Part shown: positions 5,879-50,548 of the stretch, one piece after another
How positions within the stretch are numbered: position 1 is the stretch's first letter
How the letters are laid out: each line of letters begins with the position of its first letter
Source: a virus
Length of the DNA: 64,000 nt
Strand: one strand, 5' to 3'
IMG/VR virus record: IMGVR_UViG_3300045988_181613
Translations under genes and position numbers: made by a program
Notes under the pieces: generated by a model
The model's database searches: none
What the model saw: the letters and a program-made list of their open reading frames with translations, nothing else
Told to the model about the DNA's origin: nothing

Positions 5879-5879
5879 A

Positions 5880-7194: not shown

Positions 7195-7218
7195 CCACAC
7201 AGGCTAAAGACCTGTGGG
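7195..7218 (-). repeat. IS left-end hairpin (loop TCTTTAG)
   Basis: Stem CCCACAGG/CCTGTGTGG with one bulge and the same loop as the right-end hairpin. It lies 8 nt from the TAG of ORF 7227..7463. Confidence 0.75.
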
Positions 7219-7226
7219 ATTTCTTG

Positions 7227-7463: not shown

Positions 7464-7494
7464 TGTTTCAATCTACACTCCTTTATGGGTGCTG

Positions 7495-7992
7495 TTATAA
7501 ATTAGAATTATTACTACATATATAATTAAACTTACATCTCATACATTTACCTCGATTGTAAAGAATTCCATTAAAAGATGAACAAATTATGTAACCTCTT
7601 GGGGTTCCAAAATATTTTTGTCTTTGTTCATCTAAATATACTTCTGATAAAACACAAGATTGCTTAATTGGATTACTTAAATTATGATCCATTTGAAATT
7701 TACTTGTAAAATAAATTTGCTGTGAATCTCTTTCTTTATACGCTTTATATGCGTTTTCACTTGTAAATTGATTGAACGGTATAATTTTATAACGATTATA
7801 CTTAGATGTTCTTAAAACAAAAATAAACGTTATAAAATTATACATAGGAAGGATAAGATCAGTATGCTTATCTAAAAAGCTTTTCACCTTTTTAGCATTA
7901 TCTCTTTTTTTAAGAAGAGAATAGCCTGGATTACTGATTAATGATCCTTGTATATATTCATATATTTCAATAAATTCTTCTTCTGGTAACAT
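7495..7992 (-). CDS. hypothetical protein
   Basis: 165-aa ORF with a Cys-rich C-terminus (CMRCKFNYIC). No family recognised. Confidence 0.55.
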   Translation of the reverse strand: MLPEEEFIEIYEYIQGSLISNPGYSLLKKRDNAKKVKSFLDKHTDLILPMYNFITFIFVLRTSKYNRYKIIPFNQFTSENAYKAYKERDSQQIYFTSKFQMDHNLSNPIKQSCVLSEVYLDEQRQKYFGTPRGYIICSSFNGILYNRGKCMRCKFNYICSNNSNL

Positions 7993-12500: not shown

Positions 12501-14426
12501 TGGTAGCCAATCTTTCTTTTCTACTGAATATGTATAATTGCCTCCTAATAAATCTCTGATAATAGCAGTTCCTGTACTGTCAGTTTGAGCTGTTTTACCT
12601 CCAATAGTAACTATTGCATCTGGTACTGGATTATCTCCATGTTTCACAATAAAGATAAGCGTATATATAGGGATTAATTGTAGAGTCACCTCTTCAATCA
12701 TATCATCCTGTACCAAAATACTTTTCTCAACCTTATAGTATTTATCTTTTTCTACAGTATAAGGATATAAATCCGGATAAGCATAAAAGACTGCTGTTCC
12801 GTCGGATCCGGTGGTTGCAAATTTTCCATTAAAAGTTATATTTGCGCCTGCAACAGGTAAATTATTTTCATCTCTTACTGCAAAAGTAATTTTTCTTTCA
12901 TATAATTCTCCTTGTAAAGGAATATAGATAATTTGTTCTTCTTGTTCAAAAACTGATTGAAGCTGATCTACAATAGGAATAAATTTATCTTTATCTACAG
13001 ACATTAAATAATCACCCGGGTAAAGTTGCATAGAAGCTTCCCCGTTAATATCTGTGGTTAACGTTTCATTATTAATAGAAATCGAAGCACCCTGGATATA
13101 AACCCCTCTATCTGAAAATACTTTGAAACGAACTAATACCAATTCGTTTTTAAAAATCTCCGAACCTCCAAAAATATTTTTATAAGAGATTAAATAAGTT
13201 TCTATGAATTGTTTTACTGTGTTATTCGATGATAAAGAATTATTCTTAAAGTAAGATGCGATAATGTTCTTTTCACCAAGATATCCTTGATTAAACGGTA
13301 AATAAATAGGTTTTATCTTTATATCATAAATATAAATACCTGAAATCGCATTTGTTGCAGTTGTTCTATCTTGAGTTAATTCAAGACTTAAATATTTTGC
13401 GCCTGTCTGAAACTTTAATCCCCTTCCATAAGGAAAGTTTAATTTTACCTCTTCGGAGAAACTTCTGTTTACTTTAGAAATAGTTCCAGTACATTGATAA
13501 TATATATTCGGAATAGGAAAGTTTAAATTACCGGTTCCTCCATCAGTATTTTTGACAAAATTATTCGATTCAATAGGAGATTGACCACTTATAGTAAATG
13601 CCTCTACACAAGATATTGGCCTTTGTAATTCATCATATGTTTGTACTCCAAAATGAATCTTCTGATCCGTGGTACTACTTACTTTTATTTTAAATTGAAT
13701 TTGGTAAGCAAGATCTTCACTTATTGTTAAGAGTTTCGATTTATCTTCTGCAGAGCTAATACCTGTTAAAGTATTACCGACAAAAGACATTGCCTTAATA
13801 GGATTTCCATCGTTATCAGTATCATCTACAATAATAATACCTGTAGGATTTATGAGTGGATATTTTGAAAGATCTGTAACAGATTCTGTCATTTCATATC
13901 CTTTTGAAATATTTAAGACGGTATCTGTTCGATTCCAAATTGGAGAACTATATCCTAAAGTCCATCCTGTATCACGAGGCATTAATAAGGCAAAGATAAA
14001 TTCATCCAATTCTCCATATTGAATTAATCTTAAGAGTTCACCAAGAATAACACCTTCTTTAGAAACAATATCCATTCTACCTCTTTTTCGATATTCATTT
14101 ACATAATTATCGAAAAGATACTGCATTTGTTCCAGGGTAGTTATTTCATTCGTAACAAGACCACGATTTTCAATGAATAATTCAAAAAGAATTTTATTCG
14201 TATCTATTTGATTATATTGACGGGAATATATTACAACCAGAGCAAATAAATGGCAAATAGATCCCCAAAAAACTTGGAAGTCTTCACTATCTTTTTTTAT
14301 AAAAGTAGGAAGAATTCCAGTTCCGCTAATTTTTGATAAAACATTATCCGCCCAAGCCAATACTGCTGGATCATTTTTCTCAAAAAATCTTTTAAAAACA
14401 GTCTTGTTATAAATCTCTTCTGCCAT
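9537..14426 (-). CDS. tail fibre protein: N-terminal anchor, about 9 prealbumin-like (CarboxypepD_reg-type) repeats, C-terminal BspA-type leucine-rich repeats
   Basis: 1629 aa. Repeats follow the pattern VTFxVxDxxGxPVxGAxVxxxGxxxTTxxxGxAxFxLxxGxYxYxVxKxGY. The C-terminus has about 12 copies of the F-x-x-C-x-x-L motif (FKNCTGLTSI, FMGCTSLQSIP, FRSCTRLTNL, FYGCSNLNKIP). Confidence 0.8.
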   Translation of the reverse strand: MAEEIYNKTVFKRFFEKNDPAVLAWADNVLSKISGTGILPTFIKKDSEDFQVFWGSICHLFALVVIYSRQYNQIDTNKILFELFIENRGLVTNEITTLEQMQYLFDNYVNEYRKRGRMDIVSKEGVILGELLRLIQYGELDEFIFALLMPRDTGWTLGYSSPIWNRTDTVLNISKGYEMTESVTDLSKYPLINPTGIIIVDDTDNDGNPIKAMSFVGNTLTGISSAEDKSKLLTISEDLAYQIQFKIKVSSTTDQKIHFGVQTYDELQRPISCVEAFTISGQSPIESNNFVKNTDGGTGNLNFPIPNIYYQCTGTISKVNRSFSEEVKLNFPYGRGLKFQTGAKYLSLELTQDRTTATNAISGIYIYDIKIKPIYLPFNQGYLGEKNIIASYFKNNSLSSNNTVKQFIETYLISYKNIFGGSEIFKNELVLVRFKVFSDRGVYIQGASISINNETLTTDINGEASMQLYPGDYLMSVDKDKFIPIVDQLQSVFEQEEQIIYIPLQGELYERKITFAVRDENNLPVAGANITFNGKFATTGSDGTAVFYAYPDLYPYTVEKDKYYKVEKSILVQDDMIEEVTLQLIPIYTLIFIVKHGDNPVPDAIVTIGGKTAQTDSTGTAIIRDLLGGNYTYSVEKKDWLPASKAITVSADETINIELNPIPTYNITFLVNDYNPFTGEKIPLSGATVSYAGITKNTAEDGTASFIVKGGSYSYSVSYANHVSQNGTYLAMEDSTKVIDLAQVQYKTTIKVVGENNRLLKGATVQIGNTTLTTGDDGTAIFNLPNGNYSYKINYTEYHENTGDFAVNNADQTITVNLDQKTYAVTFTVRQEGAISVGAIVTLGSNSLPTDNLGQAVFYIPVSTTPYSWTVSKTDYVTQSGSIDMTGVPVSREINLVRKTSVVTFYVTDDNGSAVSGATVVVAGQTRSTGANGRIEFTIAVGSYDYTISKLPDYQEQSGNVRVTENDQIVNVVLSNKVYNIIVTVKSPKNRNISGASVSISGKSGSTNFSGQATLTDFKNGTYSLSVNSSGYNTHTENVTVSGSNAYVTVTLTYILDSGTITVYKEDSVLTNQSVSIEIYDRHGDYYNTLSQPTNNYGRVSFSGPSGGTSYVSVNNSECVALEDISVSNGGSRTLYLWKALILTFNNSTSTPSGLSSSDWDRNGNDVRCCPGAKNNPSSVSSSRLTISCSGMTRLISIKQWPISFSITGSSGSVPGSGNYGVFKNCTGLTSIASGSPHIYGGVIEWFMGCTSLQSIPSGLFLNMTGNAATGAFRGCTSLTSTSTGPLVPLGTVYHTSMFRECSKLTTIGDSIFGQGGGTDDFHAVFMGCTAYTNSSGFQSTDSPFKRSTNAIYMQWTFANCRSLRVASISWFRYCTKVQSFESCFESCTNLRTYSMVMFAWSTSLTRMKGTFYNCTYLPDPDAGVGQSVTIIDYIFYNCKSVFNLDQFDLSYHTNLQSAAHAFEGSGVEKTAYRLFRSCTRLTNLTAAFKNCTNLKSFGYNGTYTLSPATGVGPTEVHISYMFEDTAFYSVNYPTLDCTEMFYGCSNLQAGTYSIGGYLVALWVANGKGIGKVKLDRMFYGCSNLNKIPCYRTDVSTARITDSVNSNVVSHSQTFTGTNVVSEVPSGWA
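9660..10766 (-). repeat. BspA-type LRR (LRR_5-like) coding repeats
   Basis: The F-x-x-C-(T/S)-x-L-x-x-(I/L) motif recurs about 12 times in the last 450 aa of the fibre. Confidence 0.6.
11100..13139 (-). repeat. array of about 9 diverged ~85-aa prealbumin-like domain repeats (coding)
   Basis: Periodic GA-V-x-x-x-G...T-D/T-x-x-G-x-A...G-x-Y-x-Y motif. Boundaries are approximate. Confidence 0.65.
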
Positions 14427-17182: not shown

Positions 17183-17217
17183 TCTGATTACACAGCAGTA
17201 ATTGCCGCGTAATCAGA
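17183..17217. repeat. hairpin spanning the stop codon of the 1992-aa gene
   Basis: TCTGATTAC (17183..17191) pairs with GTAATCAGA (17209..17217), giving a 17-nt loop. It lies immediately 3' of the A-depleted patch. Confidence 0.5.
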
Positions 17218-37903: not shown

Positions 37904-39409
37904 TTAAAGGCCGATAGTACCAATATTCACGATACGAACGATCTTAGCAGGCTGATAAAGAACCGGACAGCCATAATTCAAAATGGCAAAACGCTTACTT
38001 GGAGAAGTAATAGCGAAATCCATTTTCATTGTATCCTGGAACTGCAGGTATTCGTTGATCTGACTGTCATTGTAATAAACAAGTGCAGAACGAGTACCAG
38101 CGATAATACGGTTACGATCACGAACTTTGCCAGCATCTGCACCATCATATCCAGAAGTCATCATACCAACAGATACTTCAAACAATGGATAATAATTAGC
38201 AGTATTACTCAAAGCAGTATTTGCTTCAGTTCTATAAATAACGAAGCAAGTTGCTTCATATGCACCACCAAGACCAGCTGTGAACTGCAAATCTACAGAT
38301 TGAGTTGTACTAACTGCTAACGCAGTGGTAGTAAGTGAAACCGGTGCAGATTCTCCATAACGGTTTTTAGCTGTAACTGCGTAACCATAGGAACCAGCGT
38401 GATTACCAAAGTTTGTTTTAACATCTGTTACAGCGGTAGCATCAGCTCCCTTAACCGGAGGCAGCGGAGCTTTTGGAGATGTAGCTTTCTTAGAAAGAGT
38501 AATAGACTTACGACGGTCAAAATATTTATCATTCTTGATATTGATTTTCCCGAACTGAGTATCAATAGTATTAACACTCTGACCCATAGTAGCACCTGTA
38601 ACAGAACCACTAAGACCAACGATCACACGTTTTGCTTCATGATAAGTCTTTACATAGTTACTGAAAACTGCCGGATTTGAAATGATGCGGTCAATTGTAC
38701 CGTTATAAACGTTAACTACTACATTGGCAGCATCTTCACACAGGGCATCACTGAGGACTTTACCCTGTGCATCAATAACAGCAGGATTTCCAAAGTAATT
38801 ATCCAATAACTGTTCTGAACTCAAACCTTCAGTAGACGTGCCATCCACTTCATTTACACCCAACATATGAAGACGGAAAATTCCATCAAATTCATCAGGT
38901 ACACATGAAGAGTCAGCTGTGATCATAACCTCATCAAGAATAGTCAACAATAGAGTTGTTTTGTTTTCAACTTCTCTTGTGTACATATTCATATCACCGG
39001 CATATTCCGCAATCAAAGCCGGATGAGTTACCTGACCAGTTACACCGGTAAAACGAGTAACGGCTGATTTACGTCTGTACTGGCTATCCGTTTCCGTCGG
39101 AGTTTCACCTTCTTGATTGAAAATACCGACATCTTCACCATATTTGAATAACTGGTTATAAGCATGAACCGTATTACGGATTTTCTGCTTCGGTATTTCA
39201 TTCATGAACACCAATTGATCCAAACGGTTGGTCAACACTTTCAGGACAGCATCCAAAGATTCAACCTTCAGACCACCACCGTTATTGATCATATTGTTAT
39301 ACTGCATACCGGTCATCAAGCCGGCTTCCATCGCTTTTAAAATCTCGGTTTGATCCATACTTTCCAGTATAGTCGAAACCTGTCCCCCTGTATAGTCGTA
39401 TAATTGCAT
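37904..39409 (-). CDS. major capsid protein
   Basis: 501-aa ORF directly after the protease and scaffold genes. It has locally higher GC and distinct codon usage, and is followed by a strong terminator. Confidence 0.8.
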   Translation of the reverse strand: MQLYDYTGGQVSTILESMDQTEILKAMEAGLMTGMQYNNMINNGGGLKVESLDAVLKVLTNRLDQLVFMNEIPKQKIRNTVHAYNQLFKYGEDVGIFNQEGETPTETDSQYRRKSAVTRFTGVTGQVTHPALIAEYAGDMNMYTREVENKTTLLLTILDEVMITADSSCVPDEFDGIFRLHMLGVNEVDGTSTEGLSSEQLLDNYFGNPAVIDAQGKVLSDALCEDAANVVVNVYNGTIDRIISNPAVFSNYVKTYHEAKRVIVGLSGSVTGATMGQSVNTIDTQFGKINIKNDKYFDRRKSITLSKKATSPKAPLPPVKGADATAVTDVKTNFGNHAGSYGYAVTAKNRYGESAPVSLTTTALAVSTTQSVDLQFTAGLGGAYEATCFVIYRTEANTALSNTANYYPLFEVSVGMMTSGYDGADAGKVRDRNRIIAGTRSALVYYNDSQINEYLQFQDTMKMDFAITSPSKRFAILNYGCPVLYQPAKIVRIVNIGTIGL

Positions 39410-39440
39410 AATCTATTTTATTTTATTTTTACGGACGAAT

Positions 39441-40127
39441 TTACTTAACAAGAGAGATGTTCTCTTTTTGATACAAATACATAGCAAGATCTTCTCCTGC
39501 AGTAATTGCATCCGAGTTCATCAAATACTCCAATGCCTGATCCTGGACTGACTTTTCAAGATCTGACCGGGTGGCAATTTTCTCAACAATTTTTCTTACC
39601 AAAGGTCGCTGAGAAATAATATTCAACTCAGTTTTACCGTTACCATCTTTTGCTAATGATTTCTCAATAACACTGGCATTGAAATTGGCTCCTTTAAATT
39701 CAGGTGCCTGTGAAGATACTTTCTTCAAAAGTTCATCCTGACTGTTCAGACGATCATTGATTCCTTTAAAGAAAGGAGTAATGGCAGCAGCCAAAGCCTG
39801 AGGAAGAGAATCGATTGACTTCATCAAATCATTGGAGAATGATTTCTCCATTTCATGTTCTTTTTCTTCATGCTCTTTTTTGTCACGCTCCAGATCTTTC
39901 TTATCCTTTTTATCTTCCTTCTCGTCCTTTTTCAGGTCGTCGATGTGCTTTTTATCATTCTCGATGTTTCTTTCTTGAAACTTTTCAGAACGATCCATTT
40001 CCGCAGTAGTTTTAGATTTTTCAATCTTTACATCCCCGGATTCGATCTGCGATTCGATCCATTCATCAGAAAACCCCGCATTTTGCAAAGATTTTACTAT
40101 TGCACTGTCTTGATATTCTACTTTCAT
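39441..40127 (-). CDS. scaffolding protein
   Basis: 228 aa, highly charged with coiled-coil character (KKDEKEDKKDKKDLERDKKEHEEKEHE). It lies between the protease and capsid genes. Confidence 0.55.
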   Translation of the reverse strand: MKVEYQDSAIVKSLQNAGFSDEWIESQIESGDVKIEKSKTTAEMDRSEKFQERNIENDKKHIDDLKKDEKEDKKDKKDLERDKKEHEEKEHEMEKSFSNDLMKSIDSLPQALAAAITPFFKGINDRLNSQDELLKKVSSQAPEFKGANFNASVIEKSLAKDGNGKTELNIISQRPLVRKIVEKIATRSDLEKSVQDQALEYLMNSDAITAGEDLAMYLYQKENISLVK

Positions 40128-40150
40128 ATTTACAAAAATTTATTTTGCTC

Positions 40151-40159
40151 TAAATATAA
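40151..40159 (-). promoter_or_regulatory. -7 promoter box variant TTATATTTA
   Basis: 23 nt upstream of the scaffold ATG at 40127. Confidence 0.4.
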
Positions 40160-40163
40160 TCCC

Positions 40164-40922
40164 TTATTTAATAGGTTCAAAATTATTTTCAATTTTTTTT
40201 ACGTAATCATCTAAAACTTGTTTAGAAATCAGTCCTTTTTGATAACTCTTATAAATCGTCCAGAAATTATCTACATCAAATCTGGATTTTTCTATAATTG
40301 AGCACTCCAGATTTTTATTGATACAAATTTTTTGATTCTCAAATTCATATTCTAATAAAATACTGGAAGCTTGTAAATCATTTGGATCAAAAACCCGGCT
40401 TTTTTGTATATCAAGATAAGTATGGTCATTTACAGGTGTAAAAGTTAAAGCAACATTTGTAATTAACGCTTTTGTAATTTTAGCCGGATTTTTAGGATCT
40501 CTCTCAAGTGCTTTTCCCTCTACGCTCATACCAGGTTTCCGTGTGGATCCAGATTCTTTCATTTCCAAGGCTTTATCCCAAAAAGCTCTTGCTTCAGGAG
40601 ATTTCTCCCAAAGTTTTCCTTTAACAAAAAACTTACCATCTTTTACATGAGCTTCGATAGGCTCACCAATCCAATATTTACTTTTATTAACTGGCGATCG
40701 AGAAGGTAAATGATCGAGGTTGAATAATCCTGATTTTAAAAACCGATCATAAATAAATCCATTGGGATCTAAAGATTCTTCTTCTGCATCTTTAGATCTA
40801 TCAGAAGCAACACCAGAGAAGATCATGTTTTTATAACGATCTGAATCTTCTTGTTTAGAACCTTTTGATTCTGCCTTTACAATATCTAATTCTGTGAATA
40901 ATTTAAAATTATCGTAAATCAT
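40164..40922 (-). CDS. prohead serine protease (HK97 / S78-like)
   Basis: 252 aa. FSGVASDRSKDAEEESLDPNGF, PGMSVEG and ITNVALTFTPVNDHTY resemble S78 motifs, and the gene precedes the scaffold gene. Confidence 0.65.
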   Translation of the reverse strand: MIYDNFKLFTELDIVKAESKGSKQEDSDRYKNMIFSGVASDRSKDAEEESLDPNGFIYDRFLKSGLFNLDHLPSRSPVNKSKYWIGEPIEAHVKDGKFFVKGKLWEKSPEARAFWDKALEMKESGSTRKPGMSVEGKALERDPKNPAKITKALITNVALTFTPVNDHTYLDIQKSRVFDPNDLQASSILLEYEFENQKICINKNLECSIIEKSRFDVDNFWTIYKSYQKGLISKQVLDDYVKKIENNFEPIK

Positions 40923-41745
40923 TTAATCCCAATTTATTTAAAAGGAGATTTATATAGAAATCTATATAATCTCGACCACGAACTAATTTCCAGTCTTTAT
41001 CATCGACTGATTTTGTCATTCCCAGCAAAAGTCCTAAAAATGCGGCATTGGTATCAGTATCTTCTCCTTTATTAACCATTTCGCAAAGATCTTCTTTTAA
41101 AGAACTTGAATTATCTTTCTTTAAAGAGAACTCTTTAACAACAGTATAAAATGTACTAATAACATCCCCTTTATTCTGAACTTCTTTAAGCTCGAATGGT
41201 TGCTGCGGTAAATCTAATAACAAATTTAGAATAATCAAACAAAAATGCGAACCAATTTCAAAACAATTTTTATTACTATGGGTTAAGCTACAAAATTCTT
41301 TATAATGTTCCTTAATAAAAGAATCACTATAATCTCCTTTTATAAGTGCGTATAAAACAGTAGGAAGTGCATGGAATAAAGCGCCATTTCCCATGGACGA
41401 TGTTTCTATCAAAGGAAAATCATTTTTAATAGCATTTGCTGTTTGATTTCCTATATCAAATAAACCATCAATGGTAAAATCTCCTTTATAATACCATTGT
41501 TTTAAATTGTTTTTAAATTGATTTACAAGATTATTATCGTGATAATATATAATAGCATTCAACCAACACAATAAAACACTTGTATCATCAGACCAGGTTC
41601 CTACTGGTTTATTATAAGTGCCATTACCTGTAAAATTAGTACAATTAAAAGTACCTTGTTTTTGAAATTCAAAAGGTACTCCTAATGCATCTCCCATTAC
41701 ATAAGCCCGGATACAGTTACTTATTTTCTTTGCTAAATTCACCAT
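40909..41745 (-). CDS. ADP-ribosylglycohydrolase (ARH / DraG family)
   Basis: 278 aa with MGDALGVPFEF, GTWSDDTS and GEDTDTNAAFLGLLLG. Confidence 0.85.
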   Translation of the reverse strand: MVNLAKKISNCIRAYVMGDALGVPFEFQKQGTFNCTNFTGNGTYNKPVGTWSDDTSVLLCWLNAIIYYHDNNLVNQFKNNLKQWYYKGDFTIDGLFDIGNQTANAIKNDFPLIETSSMGNGALFHALPTVLYALIKGDYSDSFIKEHYKEFCSLTHSNKNCFEIGSHFCLIILNLLLDLPQQPFELKEVQNKGDVISTFYTVVKEFSLKKDNSSSLKEDLCEMVNKGEDTDTNAAFLGLLLGMTKSVDDKDWKLVRGRDYIDFYINLLLNKLGLNDLR

Positions 41746-41884
41746 CTATTTTCTTTGCTAAATTATCCATCCCTTCTAATCCTTGCTCTAAAGAAATCTT
41801 ATCTGATTCCTCTTTACTTATATCTGAAGATTTTACATCACTTATATAAAATGATTCAAATCTCTTTTTATTTTCTTTTTCCAT
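41717..41884 (-). CDS. small acidic hypothetical protein (55 aa)
   Basis: Below the track cutoff. It starts MEKENKKRFESFYISDV..., its ATG lies 16 nt downstream of a promoter box, and its 3' end overlaps the ARH start inside an 18-bp direct repeat. Confidence 0.35.
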   Translation of the reverse strand: MEKENKKRFESFYISDVKSSDISKEESDKISLEQGLEGMDNLAKKIDGEFSKENK

Positions 41885-41900
41885 ATTCTTCTTTTTATTC

Positions 41901-41909
41901 TAAAGATAC
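41901..41909 (-). promoter_or_regulatory. -7 promoter box GTATCTTTA
   Basis: 16 nt upstream of the ATG at 41884. It is part of a 24-nt block identical to 56933..56956. Confidence 0.5.
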
Positions 41910-41942
41910 GAAGAAAATTTCATTCTTTTCTCTTTTTGGTTC

Positions 41943-43763
41943 CTATGATGCTTTAAGTTTTTCGAAGAGTAATTCCTTTAGTCTCTCCTTGAATTCATTC
42001 AAAGATTCACCCTCTTTTGATTCTAAAGAAATACCATATCCTTTAGATTGATATCCTGTTTCTTTATCATTCATTGTGATAAACATTTTATGATTATTAA
42101 CCATGATACCCGTTTTCTTAATTCTTTTTATTCCTTCACTCGTATTTTGATTAGATGAAGATTTTGCATTAGCTTCATCTGGAACTAACTCTACTGTCAT
42201 AGAGCTGTAACCTTTTGAAATTACTTTAACCTTAGTATGTGATTTAGTTACCCACTCAAGTTCACTTCTATTGCCAATAGGAACTATATTTTTTTCACCT
42301 TTTTTAACTAATAACGTTATTTGAATTGATCCAAAATCTTTGGTATATGAGGCGAAAGATTGCATTGGTTTCATTTCAAAAGTATCTCCTACTTTTAAAT
42401 TTCTTATTGTATGAAGAATTTCCTCCCCTTCTACTCTTCGTGACAATACAAGATTTTTTGGAACTGGTGGACTATTTTGAATAAATTCATCTACTTTCTT
42501 TTGTAATTTTTCCACTATAGCCTCAGGATTTTTACTCATTATTATATCCTTTGCAATTCGACCGTATTCATTATCCATAAAATCTCCATCTTTTAATTCA
42601 TTACCAGAAGAATCCGTTCCAAATTCTTTTCTAAAAAGTCCTATTTCAAAATCAAAATTATCCTTATCTTTCAAAGCTGTTGCAGTAAAAAGACCATAAG
42701 ATGATCCTTTATAATAGCCTAAAATTGCTCGAGTAAATTCATCTGGTTTATAGAGTTCCTGATTATATTTTTCATAACTAATACGTGCTTCTGTTGAATC
42801 TTTAGGATATTCATATTGTTCTCCTTTCCATTCTTGAAATAATTGAGGAGAACAATATGGTCGTTCACCCTTTTTTATTAAAAGATTATTCATAGCTAAA
42901 ATCCCAAGATCTATTTCTTTGATATTGATCCTACCTACATGAGCTCTTCTTTCATAATCTCCAAAAAGTCCATCTTCAATATTATCCCAAATTTCCTTAA
43001 ATTCTTCATATTTATTCTGGTAATAATTCTTTTGTTTTTCTGGTAACGATTCAATTGTTTTATTTATCTTTTCTTCTAAATCATTATCAATAGAGGTTGT
43101 TGTTTCTTTATCGGAAACTGATTCTTTATTTTCAGTTTGATCTTTCCAAGTTTCTTTTATTCTCTTTTTAAAATCACTTAAAGACTCTCCTTCTTTTGAT
43201 TCTAATTTTAAAGCTTTCATTCCCTGTGTTTTATACCCAGTTTTATTTTCATTCATTACAATGAAAACTTTATGTCCATCTAATAAAAGACCAGTCTTTT
43301 TAATTTCCTTCAAAGGTTCCTTTTTCTTCTCATCTAAATCTTTAGATAGAGAATCTTTTAAAGATTGAAGTTCTTCCTCTATTTTTCCTATTTTTTCTTT
43401 AACGTCTTCCTCTTCTTCATCCTTTCTTCCAGTTCTTTTATCAAGCTCTACTTGCGCTATATCTTTAACTTCTGGATTTTGTTTAGGATCATCGATTGCG
43501 GCTTCTAATTGTTTATCAGAAGCCTTTTCAGCAAATTCTTCTAATTGCTTTGTTCTATCCAAAGAAGGATCTTTTTCTTTTGAGGTTGAATTTGCTACTG
43601 GTTCCTGTTTCTTTTCACGTTGTTCTCCTTTTGGTCTCCAACCTGCAGGAGTTTTCACGAAAGTCCTTCCTCCCCATTGTTTTTCAGTACCTACGGGGAC
43701 TCCTTTTCGGCCCTTCATTAAATCCAATTCAAATATTAAAAGATCCTTCTTTTCCATAATCAA
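41943..43763 (-). CDS. putative ADP-ribosyltransferase-like head-cargo protein with an internally duplicated module
   Basis: 606 aa. A candidate R-S-E triad is LVLSRRV (R442/443), MQSFAS (S469-S472) and RSELEWV (E501-x-E503). A duplicated ~53-aa module occurs as IKKTGLLLDGHKVFIVMNENKTGY... and IKKTGIMVNNHKMFITMNDKETGY.... Confidence 0.4.
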   Translation of the reverse strand: MIMEKKDLLIFELDLMKGRKGVPVGTEKQWGGRTFVKTPAGWRPKGEQREKKQEPVANSTSKEKDPSLDRTKQLEEFAEKASDKQLEAAIDDPKQNPEVKDIAQVELDKRTGRKDEEEEDVKEKIGKIEEELQSLKDSLSKDLDEKKKEPLKEIKKTGLLLDGHKVFIVMNENKTGYKTQGMKALKLESKEGESLSDFKKRIKETWKDQTENKESVSDKETTTSIDNDLEEKINKTIESLPEKQKNYYQNKYEEFKEIWDNIEDGLFGDYERRAHVGRINIKEIDLGILAMNNLLIKKGERPYCSPQLFQEWKGEQYEYPKDSTEARISYEKYNQELYKPDEFTRAILGYYKGSSYGLFTATALKDKDNFDFEIGLFRKEFGTDSSGNELKDGDFMDNEYGRIAKDIIMSKNPEAIVEKLQKKVDEFIQNSPPVPKNLVLSRRVEGEEILHTIRNLKVGDTFEMKPMQSFASYTKDFGSIQITLLVKKGEKNIVPIGNRSELEWVTKSHTKVKVISKGYSSMTVELVPDEANAKSSSNQNTSEGIKRIKKTGIMVNNHKMFITMNDKETGYQSKGYGISLESKEGESLNEFKERLKELLFEKLKAS

Positions 43764-45580
43764 TGCATTTGTAAACGATATCTTGTTTGTTTCAGTGTTG
43801 CAAGAAAATCATCAATCCAAGAGATTTCTCCATTATAATCATCTTTACCTTCTAATTCCTTTCGGAACTCAATAGTTTTGTCAAAAATCATTTGACAAAT
43901 TTTAACAGGATCATCTTCTGTCACCTCATCTCCTTGAATTTCACCTTCTTTAAAACGGCCAAAACCCGATTGACCTGCCTCTGCAATCTTATCTTCAAAC
44001 TCTCCCACTTCATCAGAAAGAGAATCCAGATAAACATGTTTAGAGTTATCTTTTTCTCCCCAATGAATGTTTTTAAGTCTTGTTTTAGCACCTTCGATAA
44101 AATTTAGATAAGTATTAAAAACCTGTTTTTCCGATTTATCTGATTTCTCAATCTCCTCTTCTTTTACAAGTTCTTCTTCAAAACCTTTTTCAATGATATT
44201 TTCGACATGTTCTAATTTACCACTGTTCTTCCAATCTTCAACCAATGATTTAAAAAGAATAGCCTCATCCATATCATTAAAATTAACGTAGATTCCAAAA
44301 CCTTCTGGTAAGATAGTCTTTTCAACAGTATCTTTTTCTTGCTCTGTATCAGCTTCCTGTTCAAGGGAAACTACATTTTTTTCTTCACCATCCAGACTTT
44401 CTTTTCTTAGTCCCTCTGTATCTTCAACTGTTTCTGCCTTTTCAACATCTTTCCAACTTTCTGGAAGTTCATTTTCTAATCCAAGAGCTTTTGCTCTTTT
44501 TCTAATCCAAGCTTTTACTTCAGATTCAGGCATATCAGAAGCTCCTACTAATCGAATAGCATCTTTCAAATCTTGACTATTTCGAATAGGATATTTACCA
44601 TTCGGCATAGCTTCACCCTTTTTAGCGAGATCTTTTCTTTCTCCATGGCTAAAATAGGTTTTGTTATTCGATTTTCTGATATCTTCTTTATGTCCTAAAC
44701 AAAAAGCATTGAAAACTTTTTCAGAAATTTCTCCAGAGGTAAATGCTTTCAAAATTCTTACGCATGGATCCGGGATTTCAATACCTAATATCCTCTTGAT
44801 ATTGTCTTTCATATCAAAGATAAATTCATATTCATCAATATCTTTAGGATCGATCCACATACTTCCAATCTCTTCCTCACTATCCAGTAAAACTAAATTT
44901 GATTCTTCTGGTGATAATTCCGTTATAAAATAATGAATATCTACTTCATTATTTTTATAGACGCCGACTTCTCTTAATTCAGTGTCTAATTTTTTAAAAC
45001 CAGTTTCTTCAAACAATTCCCTGGCAGCTGCTTCAATGAAAGTTTCACCTGGATCAACATGACCACCTGGAATACACCATTGTTGTTTTGTAGGACCGTC
45101 TCCGAAAGCTCTTTGTAAAATCAAAAACTTGTGATCGGGTCGGAAAATTATTACATCCGCAAATCGTACGATACCTTCTTTTGCTTTAAAAATATCAAAA
45201 AGAGCTGTTTTAGAAATGATTCCTTTTTCACTCAACTTTTCAAAAGACCAAATCTCTCTGCATTCATTCAATACATCAATGATTTCTTCATCTTTTTCTA
45301 ATGTTTTCATCGCTTTTTCAATGCGAATTTTTTTATTACAGAGATCAGTAACTTCTTTAGTTTGCTGTCTTAAAAACACTTGAAAACGATTCATAATATC
45401 TTGACGAATAGTCAAATCAGTTTCTTCATTCAAACTATCTACCTGAGACTTTTGTAAAGCATAATCTTGTGCCAACATCTCAGATTGATATTCAATTTCA
45501 TATAAAGATTTGTATAGACTTCTATACTCCTTTATTTTTTCTGCGTGGGTTTGAATCCCGAGTAACTTTCTTATATTCAT
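43760..45580 (-). CDS. Nudix hydrolase fusion protein (central Nudix domain, C-terminal Dps/ferritin-like helix bundle)
   Basis: 606 aa. The Nudix box is GGHVDPGETFIEAAARELFEETGF. The C-terminus (LKNIHWGEKDNSKHVYLDSLSDEVGEFEDKIAEAG...ISWIDDFLATLKQTRYRL) resembles Dps. Confidence 0.8.
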   Translation of the reverse strand: MNIRKLLGIQTHAEKIKEYRSLYKSLYEIEYQSEMLAQDYALQKSQVDSLNEETDLTIRQDIMNRFQVFLRQQTKEVTDLCNKKIRIEKAMKTLEKDEEIIDVLNECREIWSFEKLSEKGIISKTALFDIFKAKEGIVRFADVIIFRPDHKFLILQRAFGDGPTKQQWCIPGGHVDPGETFIEAAARELFEETGFKKLDTELREVGVYKNNEVDIHYFITELSPEESNLVLLDSEEEIGSMWIDPKDIDEYEFIFDMKDNIKRILGIEIPDPCVRILKAFTSGEISEKVFNAFCLGHKEDIRKSNNKTYFSHGERKDLAKKGEAMPNGKYPIRNSQDLKDAIRLVGASDMPESEVKAWIRKRAKALGLENELPESWKDVEKAETVEDTEGLRKESLDGEEKNVVSLEQEADTEQEKDTVEKTILPEGFGIYVNFNDMDEAILFKSLVEDWKNSGKLEHVENIIEKGFEEELVKEEEIEKSDKSEKQVFNTYLNFIEGAKTRLKNIHWGEKDNSKHVYLDSLSDEVGEFEDKIAEAGQSGFGRFKEGEIQGDEVTEDDPVKICQMIFDKTIEFRKELEGKDDYNGEISWIDDFLATLKQTRYRLQMH

Positions 45581-45598
45581 GATAATAATATTTTGCAG

Positions 45599-45607
45599 TA
45601 AATATAC
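45599..45607 (-). promoter_or_regulatory. -7 promoter box variant GTATATTTA
   Basis: 18 nt upstream of the ATG at 45580. Confidence 0.4.
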
Positions 45608-45610
45608 GAA

Positions 45611-46063
45611 TTAATCTTTTATAAGAACATCATCAGCATAATAAGAATGATCTTTTTCTACTTCTATGGAATAAAGCCAATCTCCATAATTCTCAGAAGG
45701 TATTTCCATTATCTGAGCCACTTTTCCTTTTTGATCTTTTCTTAATTGAAGAATATCTCCAATTTTTACATCAATCACTCTCTTTAAACAACCATTAATA
45801 TAAAGAACAGAATCTCCACTTATTCTATGGATTCCATCTATTTCATATCCTTTTTCTTTTTCTTGATTTTCGGAAAAGAAATATATATCAAAAATTCCTT
45901 GGGAAAAAGTTGGGTAAAGAATTCTTTTATTAATTTGAGTGATCTGCTTGTATCTTTTTAAGTGTGTTAATACAAGGTCTCCCACTTTTAAATCCTTTAT
46001 ATATTTAGATCCTTCAAAAGTAGTTATTTCTATGTAACCAGAACAAAAAGTAGATTGTTTCAT
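45611..46063 (-). CDS. free-standing Hint (intein-like) domain protein
   Basis: 150 aa. It begins MKQSTF-C-SGYIEITT, has VGDLVLTH and KIGDILQL, and ends VEKDHSYYADDVLIKD, which is block-G-like but without a terminal HN. Its ATG overlaps the stop of the MuF gene (ATGA). Confidence 0.45.
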   Translation of the reverse strand: MKQSTFCSGYIEITTFEGSKYIKDLKVGDLVLTHLKRYKQITQINKRILYPTFSQGIFDIYFFSENQEKEKGYEIDGIHRISGDSVLYINGCLKRVIDVKIGDILQLRKDQKGKVAQIMEIPSENYGDWLYSIEVEKDHSYYADDVLIKD

Positions 46064-48027
46064 ATTTCAAAATTTTTATATCCTATTTGTATTCTAACTT
46101 TAGATCTCCTTTCAACAGTCCGCTGAAAATCCTTTGGAGGTATAAAAGCATTTTCCTCTTCTGACCAAATATATCCTTTCGGAATATAGATAAGCTCACA
46201 ACGACAATTACCTGAAACACACACCTTACCCTTTCTCCTAACAATTAAAGTATGATTTTTTTTAAGTTCAACATCATAAATTTGACCGTTATAATCAATT
46301 TGAATTTCTTTCATATGAGATCTCAAATTATATTTTGTAGAAAGTTCATTAATTTCCCACTGATCATAATTTGCCAAATAATCTTTGTTTTGCTTTTTAC
46401 AATGATATATGGACCTTCCTTTATTACGATAAGAAGGTCTTTTACCTATCTTCAATAAAAGCTCCCCTATGTCACTTGCTAATTGAACGCTTGAAGTCGA
46501 AAATACTCTTAGTGGTTTACACTGATATCCATCAAAAATAGTTCCTTTATGTATAGTACCATCACCTAAATGAAAAGCGTTTAAAAATAACTCAATATAT
46601 TCAGGAGAAAGTTCTTTAATGAAAGAAGGTACATATTTTTGATAAGATTTTCCTAAGGATTTAAAGAAATTGATAAATTCAATTTGATTTTTCTTTATAT
46701 AAATTTCTATTCTTTCCTTTTGTAAAGAAACACTTGGAAATATTTTTTTACAACAATTGAAGATTATTTCTCGAGAATCTTTTAATTGGCTTATATTTAT
46801 TCTTTTTGTAGATTTATATTCAGTATAAGATCCTTCAGATAAATAATATCCCAGAAATTCACAGAATAATTTCATATCATATTGATTTCCATCAAATGTA
46901 ATATATTTTTTTTCTATTCCTTTCCAAGAAGGTAAATAAGTGAGAAATGAATATTCTTCTGTTAATTCAGACTCTTTTCTCAAACAAATATTTTTACCAG
47001 ATTTATATTCATACTGAGTTCTACCGACATGATAATGATTAGGAGAGGTACAGAGATTAAAATCTCTACTAATTCTTTCTATCATCTTTCCTTTATAATG
47101 AATAGAGAGGTAATGTATGGCTTTAACATACTCACCTTCACCCGTTTCTGGATTAACTGATAAAAATTCTTCATCTCCTTTTAAATCAGAAAATAATATG
47201 AAACCATTTTTAGTAAGTACTTCTGTTTGATCATCATAACAGAAAGGATGAGTAGTTCCGAGAACTGGCTTCCAATCTTTCGCTTTTCTTCCAATATTAT
47301 CTCCATTCGATATAAGTTGAGATATCTTAAATATACGGGGCTTACTTCCAATTCCTCCTGTAGTATATAAATGTCTACAATGAGAACATGCTTGTGGAAA
47401 AACATGTTTGTAAACCAGAGCTTCTGTACCATGTTTTTCCATTATAATTTGAGCTTTTCCAAGACAATAAATATCCTGCATCTCTGTTTCTACAATCCTT
47501 CCCCAATCTCTATTCCAATCTTGCAATCGATTTGATATATTATTTGTAATTGATTGCACAGATTTCCTTCTCAATATCCCTTCTTTTACAGAATTATCCA
47601 ATTGGCGATACTCAACTGTATTTTTTATTTCTTGCTCTGAAATAGCATTCGAGATCGTTTCTTTAAAACGATGTCCCATTCCTTTTATATAAGAATAGGT
47701 TCTTGTAGCGGCAGCTCGATATTCCGCTTTTTCTCTTTCAGTTAGTTTTTGATAATCTCTTCTTTCAATATAAGTAGTTAAATCTTTATAATCTAATTGT
47801 TTCGTTTGAATCGGACTCAATAAAGCAGAAACTCTACCAAATAAAAATGCCTGGTAATAAGGAGGTAACTTTATAAGTTCTTTCTCGATATCAAAACCAT
47901 TCTTTTTTAACAATTCTTTATCCTCAGACGTTAAAAATTCTTTTCCTAAAACGTCTCCAACAATACGTGCCAATCGATAATCGACAATATTGAAAAGTTT
48001 TTGTATTTCCGCTGGTGTAAAAATCAT
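46060..48027 (-). CDS. MuF / SPP1 gp7-like minor head protein interrupted by an intein
   Basis: 655 aa. The exteins rejoin as ...LGTTHPF+CRCELIYIP, restoring the HPxCRC motif typical of the MuF family. The gene lies next to the portal gene. Confidence 0.75.
   Translation of the reverse strand: MIFTPAEIQKLFNIVDYRLARIVGDVLGKEFLTSEDKELLKKNGFDIEKELIKLPPYYQAFLFGRVSALLSPIQTKQLDYKDLTTYIERRDYQKLTEREKAEYRAAATRTYSYIKGMGHRFKETISNAISEQEIKNTVEYRQLDNSVKEGILRRKSVQSITNNISNRLQDWNRDWGRIVETEMQDIYCLGKAQIIMEKHGTEALVYKHVFPQACSHCRHLYTTGGIGSKPRIFKISQLISNGDNIGRKAKDWKPVLGTTHPFCYDDQTEVLTKNGFILFSDLKGDEEFLSVNPETGEGEYVKAIHYLSIHYKGKMIERISRDFNLCTSPNHYHVGRTQYEYKSGKNICLRKESELTEEYSFLTYLPSWKGIEKKYITFDGNQYDMKLFCEFLGYYLSEGSYTEYKSTKRINISQLKDSREIIFNCCKKIFPSVSLQKERIEIYIKKNQIEFINFFKSLGKSYQKYVPSFIKELSPEYIELFLNAFHLGDGTIHKGTIFDGYQCKPLRVFSTSSVQLASDIGELLLKIGKRPSYRNKGRSIYHCKKQNKDYLANYDQWEINELSTKYNLRSHMKEIQIDYNGQIYDVELKKNHTLIVRRKGKVCVSGNCRCELIYIPKGYIWSEEENAFIPPKDFQRTVERRSKVRIQIGYKNFEI
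46207..47241 (-). mobile_element. 345-aa intein with a LAGLIDADG homing endonuclease domain
   Basis: Block A CYDDQTEVLTKNGF, block B CTSPNHYH, LAGLIDADG motifs FLGYYLSEGSY and FLNAFHLGDGT, and blocks F/G IYDVELKKNHTLIV...VCVSGN followed by the +1 Cys. Confidence 0.8.
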
Positions 48028-48224
48028 TCCTTTACAATATCAACCATTTCCTTTACAATATCTTTAAACATATTATTAGTCTGGGTTACGAAAATCGCTT
48101 GTGCTAAATTTTCGTAACCACACTGAACCTTAGGATACCTGATAGGATCTTTTACATGAGGCTTAATAGCAGGTGCTTTCTGCATATCATTAACCTTAAT
48201 TCCCTTCACATATTTATATTCCAT
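48024..48224 (-). CDS. hypothetical protein
   Basis: I moved the start to MEYKYVKG at 48224, directly after the portal stop. Confidence 0.5.
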   Translation of the reverse strand: MEYKYVKGIKVNDMQKAPAIKPHVKDPIRYPKVQCGYENLAQAIFVTQTNNMFKDIVKEMVDIVKE

Positions 48225-48225
48225 A

Positions 48226-49917
48226 TCAATTCTTATAAAGATTTTTTGCAATATATTCCATTGCAGCAGCTTCAATAGGATTATTCTCTATAGATTTTTC
48301 ATATTGATCAAAAGGATTCTCTCCATCCTCACCCGGTACGGGTTCTGCATACATAGCAGAATTCATTTCATTCATCTTTGCCGTTTGATATACAGAATTT
48401 AAAATAGTATCTGTATCAGGATTAAATTGTCTTCCAGAATATTTACGGAAAATATCTTCCATAGATACCATTCCACCATCTAATTTCTTTTTATCTAATT
48501 CAACTTGTTTAGATTCATCTTCAATTTCAATTCCGGTAAAGGCGAATTCAAATTCTCCATCAAACATTTCATCCACTATATAATGATTGATGATGTTCTG
48601 GAGAAAAATCAATAAAGGTTTTAATCCTTTATCTCTACTATGATTCAAACGCTCATGTTGTCCATTTTGACCAAATATTTGTGTTTGATCTTTAAATTGG
48701 AATCCAAGTTCAGAAGGATCGATTCGATAAACAGAACAAGTAATTACAATCAAGAATTTTACCCATTCTGTAAATTCCATATCTCTATTTGATTTCTGTA
48801 AGTCAACCCATTCCAAATCTATTCCTTGCATTATAGGAGTTCGATGTGAATTACCTACCCCTCTCATTGTTTGGGTCCAAGCTTGCCGAAATTCATTTAA
48901 AGTTGCATTATCGATATTTCCATTCTTAATATTAATAAAACCTTTCGGTTGAGAACCTTTAGAAAAGAAATTACCGTTATATTGCATACCCCAAAGAATC
49001 CAGGTTATAATCTCAACAAGAGTTTCAAGTTCCGAAGTACCGTAACCATTTCTATAAATAGATGTGCTTTTATTTCGAATACCATAGCCTAACTCCCATG
49101 GATAAAAAACTACTGATTCATGAGTTGTAGGATTCTGAAGAATTTGTCCCTGCCAAGACATACAAAAACGGGGTAGATAACCTTTGAAACGATATCTTTC
49201 AAATTCATCGCGATAGCGTGGATCTACACTGTCTAATAGTCTGATCAAAGAGGCATCAATAGCCCGAAAACGTGCTAAATTCCATCCACGATCTCTTGTT
49301 ATTTCAAAAGCTAACTGATCTAACGTCAAGCTATCAAATACAATTTTCCTTCCAAAATCTTGGAAAGTATCATAATTAGCCCATTTATCATTTAAACCAC
49401 CATTTTCAAGAAACTTGATTATATGCTCAATCTTTCCCTGGTCGCCTTCTTCAATTTCTTTGTTCTGAAAATCCTTCTCGAAAAGACTTTTCTTTTTTCT
49501 TATGGTGTAACCTTCTTTCTGTTCATCAACACTAAAATGCAGGAAATTTTGTACTTGTTCTACTCGTGTATTAACAACACTACGAACAATAAAAATATCC
49601 CCCATTCTTCTTAATGTATCAAAAGAAAGGGCACCTCTATTTTCTTTATATCCTTTTCCAGAATCGCCTACATCATTTGGATTGAAAAAAATTGATTGCA
49701 TTTTTCCATTATCCAATCTATCTCGTTGATTCAAAAAAAGATTTGCTTTCATGATCTCTTCAAAATCATTAGAAGCGGCCATTTGTTGAATTTTTGACTC
49801 AAGTAATGTTGGAATGGTCTTTTGCAATCCCGAAATTTCTTCCAAAGACAGACCAGCCAGACCTTTTAAAAGGTCTGGCTTTTCTTCTTTATTTATCTTC
49901 TTTCTACGACTGCTCAT
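48226..49917 (-). CDS. portal protein
   Basis: 563 aa. GSQPKGFINI...MEFTEWVKFLIVITCSVYRIDPSELGF resembles the portal core. The gene lies directly upstream of the MuF gene. Confidence 0.7.
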   Translation of the reverse strand: MSSRRKKINKEEKPDLLKGLAGLSLEEISGLQKTIPTLLESKIQQMAASNDFEEIMKANLFLNQRDRLDNGKMQSIFFNPNDVGDSGKGYKENRGALSFDTLRRMGDIFIVRSVVNTRVEQVQNFLHFSVDEQKEGYTIRKKKSLFEKDFQNKEIEEGDQGKIEHIIKFLENGGLNDKWANYDTFQDFGRKIVFDSLTLDQLAFEITRDRGWNLARFRAIDASLIRLLDSVDPRYRDEFERYRFKGYLPRFCMSWQGQILQNPTTHESVVFYPWELGYGIRNKSTSIYRNGYGTSELETLVEIITWILWGMQYNGNFFSKGSQPKGFINIKNGNIDNATLNEFRQAWTQTMRGVGNSHRTPIMQGIDLEWVDLQKSNRDMEFTEWVKFLIVITCSVYRIDPSELGFQFKDQTQIFGQNGQHERLNHSRDKGLKPLLIFLQNIINHYIVDEMFDGEFEFAFTGIEIEDESKQVELDKKKLDGGMVSMEDIFRKYSGRQFNPDTDTILNSVYQTAKMNEMNSAMYAEPVPGEDGENPFDQYEKSIENNPIEAAAMEYIAKNLYKN

Positions 49918-49930
49918 GATAAATTATTTT

Positions 49931-50548
49931 TTATACGCCTGCTGTTTGACTCAATGTAATTGAAGCCGTAGCTGGTGAATCGCCTTCCAACTGAGTAATT
50001 GTTACTGTACCAGATCTTCCAGCTCCTGTATTGGCAGATGCAATTACCATATCTTTAGTGTCATTCAAACTAAATCCATCTCCGGTAATTTCCACCTTAT
50101 ATTTTACATCGACAATCATTCCTTTTACAAAGCCTTCACTGGTAACTGTTTTTGTTGATTTTACAGCAAAACTATCAGATCCTCCTGCAGCTGCAAAAGA
50201 TAATTCTGTCGGATCTGCCTCTACTTTATAATCTCCAAATTCCATCTTCTCAGGAAGTAATTCAATCGGAGAAATTTCTCCGAGACCTTCATTCCATTGA
50301 ATAAGCTGAAGACCATTATTCAAAGCAAACAACAAAAAATCAAGATGTTCTCTTTCCGTACCTGCGACAAAATCAAACCCCATTTCCAAAATAGCAGAAT
50401 TAGGATTATCAATTGCAGACGTGTTTCCGGGAATAGGAATACCTCTTGGAGTTTCAGTAATAAATACTTTTTTCTGTTCTCCAGAACCATCCGTAGCTAC
50501 TACTACATCAATGTTTTTATCTGAGTTTTTAAATTCATATAGTCTCAT
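49931..50548 (-). CDS. BACON-like / Ig-like domain protein
   Basis: 205 aa. The C-terminus (LSFAAAGGSDSFAVKS...ASANTGAGRSGTVTITQ) resembles BACON domains. Confidence 0.35.
   Translation of the reverse strand: MRLYEFKNSDKNIDVVVATDGSGEQKKVFITETPRGIPIPGNTSAIDNPNSAILEMGFDFVAGTEREHLDFLLFALNNGLQLIQWNEGLGEISPIELLPEKMEFGDYKVEADPTELSFAAAGGSDSFAVKSTKTVTSEGFVKGMIVDVKYKVEITGDGFSLNDTKDMVIASANTGAGRSGTVTITQLEGDSPATASITLSQTAGV

Follow-up and report, generated by a model that had tools for sequence, protein, structure and literature searches.

The stretch of DNA analysed here (the window) comprises 64,000 nucleotides (nt) of the IMG/VR virus record IMGVR_UViG_3300045988_181613, and the locus of interest is its head module at 37.9–50 kb, which carries genes for an ADP-ribosyltransferase (ART) and an ADP-ribosylglycohydrolase (ARH) with a conserved small open reading frame (ORF) between them. 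Every gene in this interval lies on the minus strand, and the genes are closely packed in the transcription order portal, small ORF, MuF-like protein of 655 amino acids (aa), 150-aa Hint-like protein, Nudix protein, ART, 55-aa ORF, ARH, protease, scaffold-like protein and major capsid protein. An earlier note on this DNA had placed the Nudix, ART-like and ARH genes in the interval from portal and MuF to the protease and had read them as a trio devoted to ADP-ribose chemistry. Gene order and matches to Pfam and PHROGs confirm the placement, and comparison with related loci shows that the ART, the small ORF and the ARH form an accessory three-gene cassette between the Nudix and protease genes.

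The ART gene (41943–43763, minus strand) encodes a 606-aa protein with a TTG start, its homologues beginning at an ATG two codons later (43757 in the window). Queried directly, the protein had no match in Pfam, PHROGs or the PDB sequences; its nature was revealed only by family profiles and a structure model. A homologue search yielded 25 relatives, and in an alignment taking in 20 of the family, with overall identity down to 29%, the residues R442, R443, S469, E501 and E503 are invariant. The LSRRV, SFAS and ELEW motifs from which an arginine–serine–glutamate (R–S–E) triad had been proposed in the earlier note are thus both present and conserved. The Pfam model ADPrib_exo_Tox (PF03496) is matched by 7 of 18 family members, the best at 4.5e-16, and for the homologue P0018 the score is 54.9 bits (cut-off 23.4). 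Since the window protein itself scores no match, its membership of PF03496 is drawn from transitive homology (window to P0018, E = 1.4e-37) together with the fold. A family profile of the ADP-ribosyltransferase domain (residues 283–532; 42168–42917, minus strand) matched Certhrax (8.8e-7) and C. perfringens BECa (5e-5) in the PDB, with the family's NLVLSRRV aligned on the catalytic (Y)RR strand of both proteins.

The earlier note had rated the ART assignment its weakest link and had suggested structure prediction as a check. In the AlphaFold2 model (predicted local distance difference test (pLDDT) 91.5, predicted template-modelling score (pTM) 0.87), the domain has the ART fold, a split β-sandwich after a helical subdomain. 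R442/R443 lie on the first β-strand, S469 of the S-x-S motif starts the third strand element, which is the position of ART strand β2, and the ExE motif (E501xE503) stands just before a later strand; judged from the predicted strands and the alignment, the catalytic arginine on strand 1, S-x-S on strand 2 and (E/Q)xE in the ADP-ribosylating turn-turn (ARTT) loop are all at their expected positions. Foldseek matched the model at probability 1.00 to C3bot (1.7e-8), C3stau, Certhrax, VIP2, CDTa and Lmo0066. Consistent with this, the best match in the BFVD viral fold library was ‘Mono-ADP-ribosyltransferase C3 [Herelleviridae sp.]’ (1.6e-15), and further matches there included many fusions of ARTs to MuF, portal or minor-capsid proteins and one T4 Alt-like ART. 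Through conservation, profile, Pfam via homologues and fold, the ART has become the best-supported part of the reading, and its assignment as a C3/VIP2/Alt-type R–S–ExE ADP-ribosyltransferase, predicted from profiles and model, is solid. Enzymes of the R–S–E family that carry ExE, as distinct from QxE, target arginine. Because the motif here is ExE, and given the precedent of the prophage ART Bxa, the acceptor is predicted to be an arginine side chain, with ADP-ribose supplied by NAD+.

The ARH gene (40909–41745, minus strand) encodes a 278-aa protein that matches Pfam ADP_ribosyl_GH (PF03747) at 2e-25, with 90.5 bits against a cut-off of 26.2. The GDALGVPFEF, GTWSDDTS and GEDTDTNAA motifs are all present, and the description of the protein as a clear ARH/DraG-type glycohydrolase stands: the metal-ligand residues D19, E26, S52-D53-D54-T55 and D229-T230-D231-T232 are invariant or nearly so among 24 homologues, and their motifs align with those of Lmo0067 and Tri1. 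These two proteins were also matched among PDB sequences (5.8e-20 and 7e-13, respectively). The AlphaFold2 model (pLDDT 93.6) shows the all-helical ARH fold, and Foldseek template-modelling scores were 0.84 for Tri1, 0.83 for Lmo0067, 0.82 for DraG and about 0.65 for the serine-specific ARH3. The top three structural matches (Tri1 twice, then Lmo0067) are all immunity ARHs of ART toxins. The best NCBIfam model was that of Tri1 (NF041672; 5.8e-18), at 64.8 bits against an equivalog cut-off of 490; the DraG model, also among the best, was likewise far under its cut-off. In addition, the alignment begins at Tri1 residue 74, so that the N-terminal extension of Tri1 (about 65 residues), which plugs the toxin, is absent. 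On these two grounds we rejected orthology with Tri1. Because the extension is missing, the phage enzyme is expected to act by reversing the modification catalytically and not by plugging the toxin. Taken together, sequence and model predict an arginine-ADP-ribose hydrolase of the Tri1/Lmo0067/DraG type, and we hold the identities of both enzymes, ART and ARH, with high confidence.

Between the two genes lies a 55-aa ORF (41717–41884, minus strand) that is conserved across lineages and overlaps the ARH start by 29 nt. In each lineage, whether or not an ARH is present, the ART gene is followed by an ORF of 48–60 aa, and at least three sequence families are represented among these ORFs; the one in the window is 59–62% identical to those of the relatives L004 and L012, where the ART domains are only about 41% identical. 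With such conservation and such constancy of occurrence, a gene-calling artefact was rejected. By analogy with Bsi, the small protein that binds Bxa, the product is a candidate binding inhibitor or immunity protein, or else a chaperone.

To what extent these genes belong together was judged from two samples, one of 80 related IMG/VR loci chosen through the Nudix gene and one of 17 ART clusters at 80% identity. In the Nudix-anchored sample, 73 of the 80 loci have neither ART nor ARH, and the Nudix–DUF5856 gene is followed by the protease gene directly or after one unrelated gene. The ART is present in seven loci and the ARH in the same seven, and no ARH without an ART was found among the 80. 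The nominal coincidence probability of 1 in 3e9 overstates the independence of these loci, because the seven represent only about three lineages; the adjacency of ART and ARH nevertheless exceeds chance. In the ART-anchored sample, the ARH lies directly downstream in 10 of the 17 clusters, and the order Nudix, ART, small ORF, ARH, protease is kept at ART identities of 28–30% and an ARH identity of 45%. A writer–eraser or toxin–immunity pairing, as the earlier note had suggested, is thus supported both by strict co-occurrence and by the immunity ARHs Tri1 and Lmo0067 as nearest relatives, and we consider a functional pairing of ART and ARH likely. ART-less relatives hold unrelated genes at the same place, which makes the Nudix–protease slot an accessory-gene hotspot: in one of them (L157, 10850–11881) it is filled by a 343-aa gene. 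In L006, a 608-aa Flg_new protein occupies the slot.

By contrast with the pair, the Nudix gene is distributed independently: in 73 of the 80 loci it occurs without ART and ARH. It was therefore rejected as a third member of the module, and the proposed ADP-ribose trio is not one functional unit. The gene (43760–45580, minus strand) encodes a 606-aa protein matching Pfam NUDIX (PF00293) at 9.7e-21 (74.6 bits against 21.1), DUF5856 at 9e-5 and phrog_858. The canonical Nudix box reported before is confirmed as GGHVDPGETFIEAAARELFEETGF (G172...E179...R187-E188-L189..E191-E192.G194), which fits GX5EX7REUXEEXGU. The ascription of ADP-ribose chemistry to this gene found no support: the best PDB matches of the domain are of the NUDX1/MutT type (1e-6), ADP-ribose pyrophosphatases reach only 2e-3, and in NCBIfam no equivalog cut-off for a Nudix substrate class was approached. 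Residues 481–606 (43760–44140) form a Dps-like/DUF5856 C-terminal domain that matches the stand-alone ‘putative DpsA’ of crAss-like Bacteroides phages. A central motif, EAMPNGKYPIRN..DL.DAI.L.G....VK.WI.KRAK.LGL (about residues 305–380; 44450–44670), is common to capsid-maturation-protease proteins of actinophages and is duplicated in the orthologues P0149 and P0203. The family comprises 1354 homologues, and the portal–Nudix fusion phrog_15528 matches the window's Nudix domain. The Nudix–Dps-like protein is a core head-module gene, independent of the ART/ARH cassette.

These distributions bear on a counter-defence alternative, also raised in the earlier note, in which the ARH, alone or with the Nudix protein, would erase the ADP-ribose marks or NAD-derived signals of DarT-, CmdT- or Thoeris-like immunity and the ART would be an unrelated host-takeover enzyme. 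For ARH, Macro and Nudix proteins of phages, a role against host ADP-ribosylation and ADP-ribose (ADPR) signalling has been either proposed or demonstrated (PMC9503650, PMC11825919), and the existence of five ART-bearing lineages without ARH means that the ARH is not obligatory beside an ART. However, in these phages the ARH never occurs without the ART: it is absent from all 73 related ART-less loci and always lies directly downstream of the ART and the small ORF. Its nearest relatives are immunity hydrolases acting on arginine-linked ADP-ribose, as opposed to DNA, RNA or cyclic-ADPR hydrolases, and the Nudix gene follows neither ART nor ARH. Chiefly because ART-less relatives have no ARH, we regard this alternative as improbable.

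The ART protein carries more than its catalytic domain. Its N terminus (residues 3–112; 43428–43757, minus strand) is an adaptor module with the motif IG.E..W.G..YVKT..GW.PK and a helix of the form QLEAAI..P.Q..EVK, in which K17, G25, K37, T38, G41, W42, A78, D83, Q85 and L86 are invariant in the 20-member alignment. The module, which has no Pfam model, often occurs in 2–4 copies, and an adaptor profile matched 517 cluster representatives among 1.84 billion proteins (P0266–P0407 are among the proteins with the module). The domains found in 58 of the longer matches include NUDIX (8), ADPrib_exo_Tox (6), PBECR1 (4) and MuF_C (2), and other adaptor-linked domains are InPase, Kinase-PolyVal, LPD1, ddrB-ParB, Topoisom_I, helicase and Zeta_toxin, a set of domains characteristic of the ‘polyvalent proteins’ of phages (Iyer et al. 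2017, PMC5512222). The motif is also inserted in some Nudix orthologues and heads a separate PBECR1 protein in L191 (3161–3898), and in relatives the same ART is joined to PBECR1 or MuF_C. From these associations, the adaptor is a candidate for a shared capsid-targeting or docking module; the argument that adaptor-bearing proteins travel in the capsid is indirect and is drawn mainly from the adaptor being common to several effector types. The protein also contains a domain of about 54 aa (KKTG..DGHK.FI.MN..TGY....LESKEGESL.DFK.R.K), present in one or two copies in all ART homologues; in the window it is an internal repeat, with copy 1 at 43149–43310 and copy 2, which is C-terminal to the ART domain and specific to the window clade, at 41967–42128 (both minus strand). 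Two further occurrences of the adaptor motif were recorded in related loci. L157 has it in a 245-aa protein upstream of a holin-like gene (289–1026), and L005 encodes, just upstream of its canonical ART, a second, paralogous ART-family protein (839 aa; 5336–7855) with a MuF_C domain (1e-19), two copies of the motif and LTRY in place of LSRR on the catalytic strand.

The adaptor is informative about a second alternative, an intracellular switch in which a late, non-packaged ART and the ARH would act during assembly on proteins of the phage or the host, modifying them reversibly as in DraT/DraG regulation, with no injection. This would suit two enzymes of one late operon whose reading frames overlap or are closely spaced, and DraG is indeed among the structural matches of the ARH. 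Yet the adaptor is common to many effector domains typical of delivered polyvalent proteins, the PBECR1 domains that relatives add are of an RNase toxin type and point to an effector rather than a regulator, and the ART fold belongs to the exotoxin/Alt clade. A purely regulatory switch therefore carries little probability.

What kind of phage encodes the cassette can be judged from its structural genes. The major capsid protein (37904–39409, minus strand; phrog_752 at 2e-55; Pfam SU10_MCP) shares 36% identity with its counterparts in Bacteroides phages DAC19-23 and about 30% with those in SPO1-like phages, and a tail-sheath gene is present in the window (phrog_279); by tail sheath and capsid similarity, the window is placed as part of a large myovirus. 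Related contigs measure about 100–110 kb, and the phage resembles a Herelleviridae-like myovirus of about 100 kb that is lytic by appearance. An integrase was looked for in the 64-kb window and none was found, nor was any other sign of temperate life there. Its host probably belongs to the Bacteroidales. Two giant tail proteins of 1629 and 1992 aa (9537–14426 and 17188–23166), the larger fused to Baseplate_J, contain many immunoglobulin (Ig)-like repeats of the CarboxypepD_reg/SpaA type; a Bacteroidales host is consistent with these, because similar Ig-like repeats are found in Bacteroidales outer-membrane proteins.

Such a lifestyle weighs on a third alternative, that the ART is a fitness factor freed on lysis to act beyond the bacterium, on gut epithelial proteins for instance, with the ARH and small ORF protecting only the producer. 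Bxa is described as acting in this way in Bacteroides stercoris in a report that cites Brown et al. for the point (PMC11699363), and eukaryotes are the target of the toxins related to the ART by fold (C3, VIP2, CDTa and Certhrax). A benefit to a lysogen is doubtful, however, for a Herelleviridae-like myovirus of about 100 kb whose window yielded no integrase; the ART has no secretion or cell-entry domain, and its adaptor suggests association with the virion. We think this account quite improbable. The last alternative, three independent auxiliary genes brought together by chance in a permissive insertion site, fits the independence of the Nudix gene and a site that takes unrelated genes such as those of L157 and L006, but is very improbable indeed given that ART and ARH co-occur perfectly in the Nudix-anchored sample and keep their order across deep divergence.

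We therefore favour, as the probable account, a late-made, arginine-specific ART that is probably delivered by the capsid and is accompanied by an enzymatic antidote. Under this account, the ART would be made together with the head genes, loaded into the procapsid and released with the DNA into the next host cell, where it would modify host proteins. The ARH, made concurrently, would take ADP-ribose off the proteins of the producing cell for as long as the ART was not yet sequestered, acting by catalysis only, as BAH does toward Bxa. The small ORF may supply a second, binding-type inhibitor or a chaperone, and the Nudix–Dps-like protein would work independently of the cassette. Delivery is suggested by the place of the cassette inside the portal–MuF–protease block, by the co-occurrence of the adaptor with the domains of polyvalent proteins and by the PBECR1 or MuF_C domains that relatives add to this ART. 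Packaging in the head has been predicted for such proteins (PMC5512222, PMC9503650), and on head-module position and adaptor we put packaging and injection of the ART at about an even chance.

Several observations weigh against this account. Six ART clusters in five lineages (L004, L012, L005 with two paralogues, L006/L027 and L029) have no ARH, with R, S and ExE intact; the antidote is therefore either dispensable or replaced by the small ORF, and this is the main weakness of a strict toxin–immunity interpretation. Packaging of the ART is purely a deduction from its position and adaptor, and the ART, unlike Bxa, is not fused to MuF. A lytic phage also has a less obvious need for self-protection than a lysogen. 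Finally, the window ART is below every Pfam ART model, giving no match to PF03496 even at E ≤ 1, and a tblastn search of 50,697 phage records with the ART was empty, leaving no cultured relative with this protein.

The remaining genes of the head module set the boundaries of the locus. Upstream, the 563-aa portal protein (48226–49917, minus strand) matches Pfam Phage_portal at 1.9e-19 and phrog_12 at 1.1e-37. Downstream, the head maturation protease (40164–40922, minus strand; phrog_1028 at 6.5e-38), whose gene start overlaps the ARH stop by 14 nt, is followed by the scaffold-like protein (39441–40127, minus strand), which together with the capsid gene spans 37904–40127. A promoter and terminator scan of 39000–50500 gave counts that did not differ from those of shuffled sequences and no boundary around the cassette, the σ70 consensus being a poor model for Bacteroidota. 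Within the 5′ end of the portal gene there is a perfect palindrome with an 11-bp stem, AGCCAGACCTTTTAAAAGGTCTGGCT (49855–49880), that has a terminator score on both strands.

The MuF-like minor head protein (46060–48027, minus strand) consists of a 310-aa extein and a 345-aa LAGLIDADG intein (46207–47241; LAGLIDADG_3 at 3e-4) inserted exactly in the conserved HPFC|RC motif. Only after in silico splicing does the extein match phrog_115, ‘minor head protein’, at 6e-6, which makes the label MuF reasonable though weakly supported. The same site holds a mini-intein in orthologues from L004 (4709–6097) and L007 and is empty in L005 (1753–3134). Directly downstream of the MuF-like gene, a free-standing Hint/intein-like ORF of 150 aa (45611–46063, minus strand) matches Pfam Hint_2 at 8.9e-4 and an NCBIfam intein C-terminal motif and shares 49% identity with the mini-intein of the L004 MuF gene. 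It has the look of an intein relic, or of a Hint domain that split off and was retained as a gene of its own. The intein, the free-standing Hint ORF, the 55-aa ORF and the Dps-like C terminus of the Nudix protein did not figure in the earlier note. Elsewhere in the window, a TnpB-type gene (5897–7198) encodes an IS200/IS605-family RNA-guided nuclease (OrfB_IS605 at 1.1e-32, HTH_OrfB_IS605 and a Cas12f1-like TNB domain).

Relatives of the ARH also occur on host mobile elements. Scanning a genome collection with the ARH profile returned mostly chromosomal ARHs of Collinsella at about 31% identity, with only Parabacteroides faecalis reaching 49%. Homologues 45–49% identical to the phage ARH are carried as cargo by small integrative elements within chromosomes of Parabacteroides (L009/L010, 7673–8810; L031; L192/L193, 924–8112), which carry an integrase, HTH_17, a Phage_CRI replication protein, a T5orf172 protein and one or two ARH copies. 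No ART was found within 8 kb of these ARHs. A 119-aa ORF overlaps the start of the element ARH, and its C terminus resembles one family of phage small ORFs (14.8 bits, a score reached by none of 2000 shuffles). In L192, a second ARH of 356 aa has a degenerate metal motif, HGGYTSTNAA. Host elements may have captured the ARH and its upstream small ORF as an orphan ‘eraser’ for anti-phage defence, which would strip the ADP-ribose placed by an injected phage ART; we think this unlikely. If true, phage ART, phage antidote and host-borne antidote would be the three sides of one arms race.

An ART beside an ARH in head genes is already known from Bacteroides prophages, and the window is a further, ordinary example. 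What it adds is that the logic of Bxa and BAH, a head-module ART neutralised by an adjacent ARH, is not confined to the MuF-fused toxins of temperate Bacteroides phages. In an abundant group of Herelleviridae-like gut myophages of about 100 kb, an accessory cassette embodies the same logic, with the ART on a different and widely shared adaptor. The natural variants with and without ARH bear on why a phage needs an antidote, and the locus offers a candidate capsid-targeting motif common to several effector types and directs attention to mobile elements of the host in which the antidote occurs alone. For annotation, the Nudix–Dps-like protein is best entered as a core protein of the head module and not as a member of an ADP-ribose pathway.

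The individual parts of the locus have counterparts in several known systems. Head-associated phage Nudix proteins (T4 NudE-like proteins and fusions with MuF, portal or protease; PMC9503650) share with the window a Nudix domain encoded in the head module; here it is joined in one protein to a Dps-like/DUF5856 domain and to a motif associated with capsid proteases, and it is assigned neither to the NudE clade nor to ADP-ribose as substrate. Polyvalent proteins (PMC5512222) resemble the ART in that its N-terminal module co-occurs with PBECR1, MuF_C, Kinase-PolyVal, LPD1, ddrB-ParB and InPase. They differ in that the window protein has a single enzymatic domain, of the R–S–ExE type, whereas the ARTs emphasised among polyvalent proteins are of the H–Y–D type (Tox-ART-HYD2). 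T4 Alt belongs by fold to the same ART clade, is likewise encoded with myovirus head genes and shares the proposed packaging and injection; it has no cognate ARH, however, and uses a T4-type capsid-targeting sequence, whereas packaging here is deduced. Alt/VIP2-family ARTs and Nudix domains encoded with myovirus head genes have been predicted to be packaged and injected, and pairs of ART and ADP-ribosylglycohydrolase (ART–ARG) have been noted in some phages (Iyer et al. 2022, PMC9503650).

Outside phages, Tre1/Tri1 of the Serratia type VI secretion system and Lmo0066/Lmo0067 of Listeria (PDB 6DRE, 8ZA7) share the combination of an arginine ART with a reversing hydrolase. The nearest relatives of the window ARH, by sequence and fold alike, are Tri1 and Lmo0067, and the window ART model matches Lmo0066, for which a literature search found no paper. 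Those systems are secreted toxins of bacteria, whereas the genes here belong to a phage head module.

By published description and gene order, the closest described system appears to be Bxa/BAH/Bsi of a Bacteroides stercoris prophage, in the MuF polymorphic toxin family, to which Apk2/Aph1/Tis1 also belong. Bxa, a prophage ART whose gene sits in a region for head morphogenesis, is toxic to bacteria and ADP-ribosylates arginine; two proteins neutralise it, BAH, an adjacent ARH that works solely through catalysis without binding the toxin, and Bsi, a small binder (Alexei et al. 2024, PMC11699363). The two systems differ in several respects. Bxa has an N-terminal MuF fusion, whereas MuF here is a separate gene two genes upstream; Pfam and PHROGs gave no MuF match in the window ART, and one relative, L005, has MuF_C on a paralogous ART. 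The ART described here carries instead the other adaptor and the repeated 54-aa domain, and its catalytic core is more compact, with 61 residues from R to ExE against about 140 in Bxa (from R679 and E818/E820). Bsi has at least 94 residues against the 55 of the small ORF, and Bxa resides in a prophage, whereas the phage here is apparently lytic and about 100 kb in size. In both, an ART in the head region stands beside an ARH and small ORFs, and ExE here predicts the arginine specificity of Bxa. Both also share the defining arrangement in which the head-morphogenesis region contains a toxin gene and, after it, the gene for an enzymatic antidote; here this is seen in gene order and co-occurrence, and the antidote is predicted to reverse the modification.

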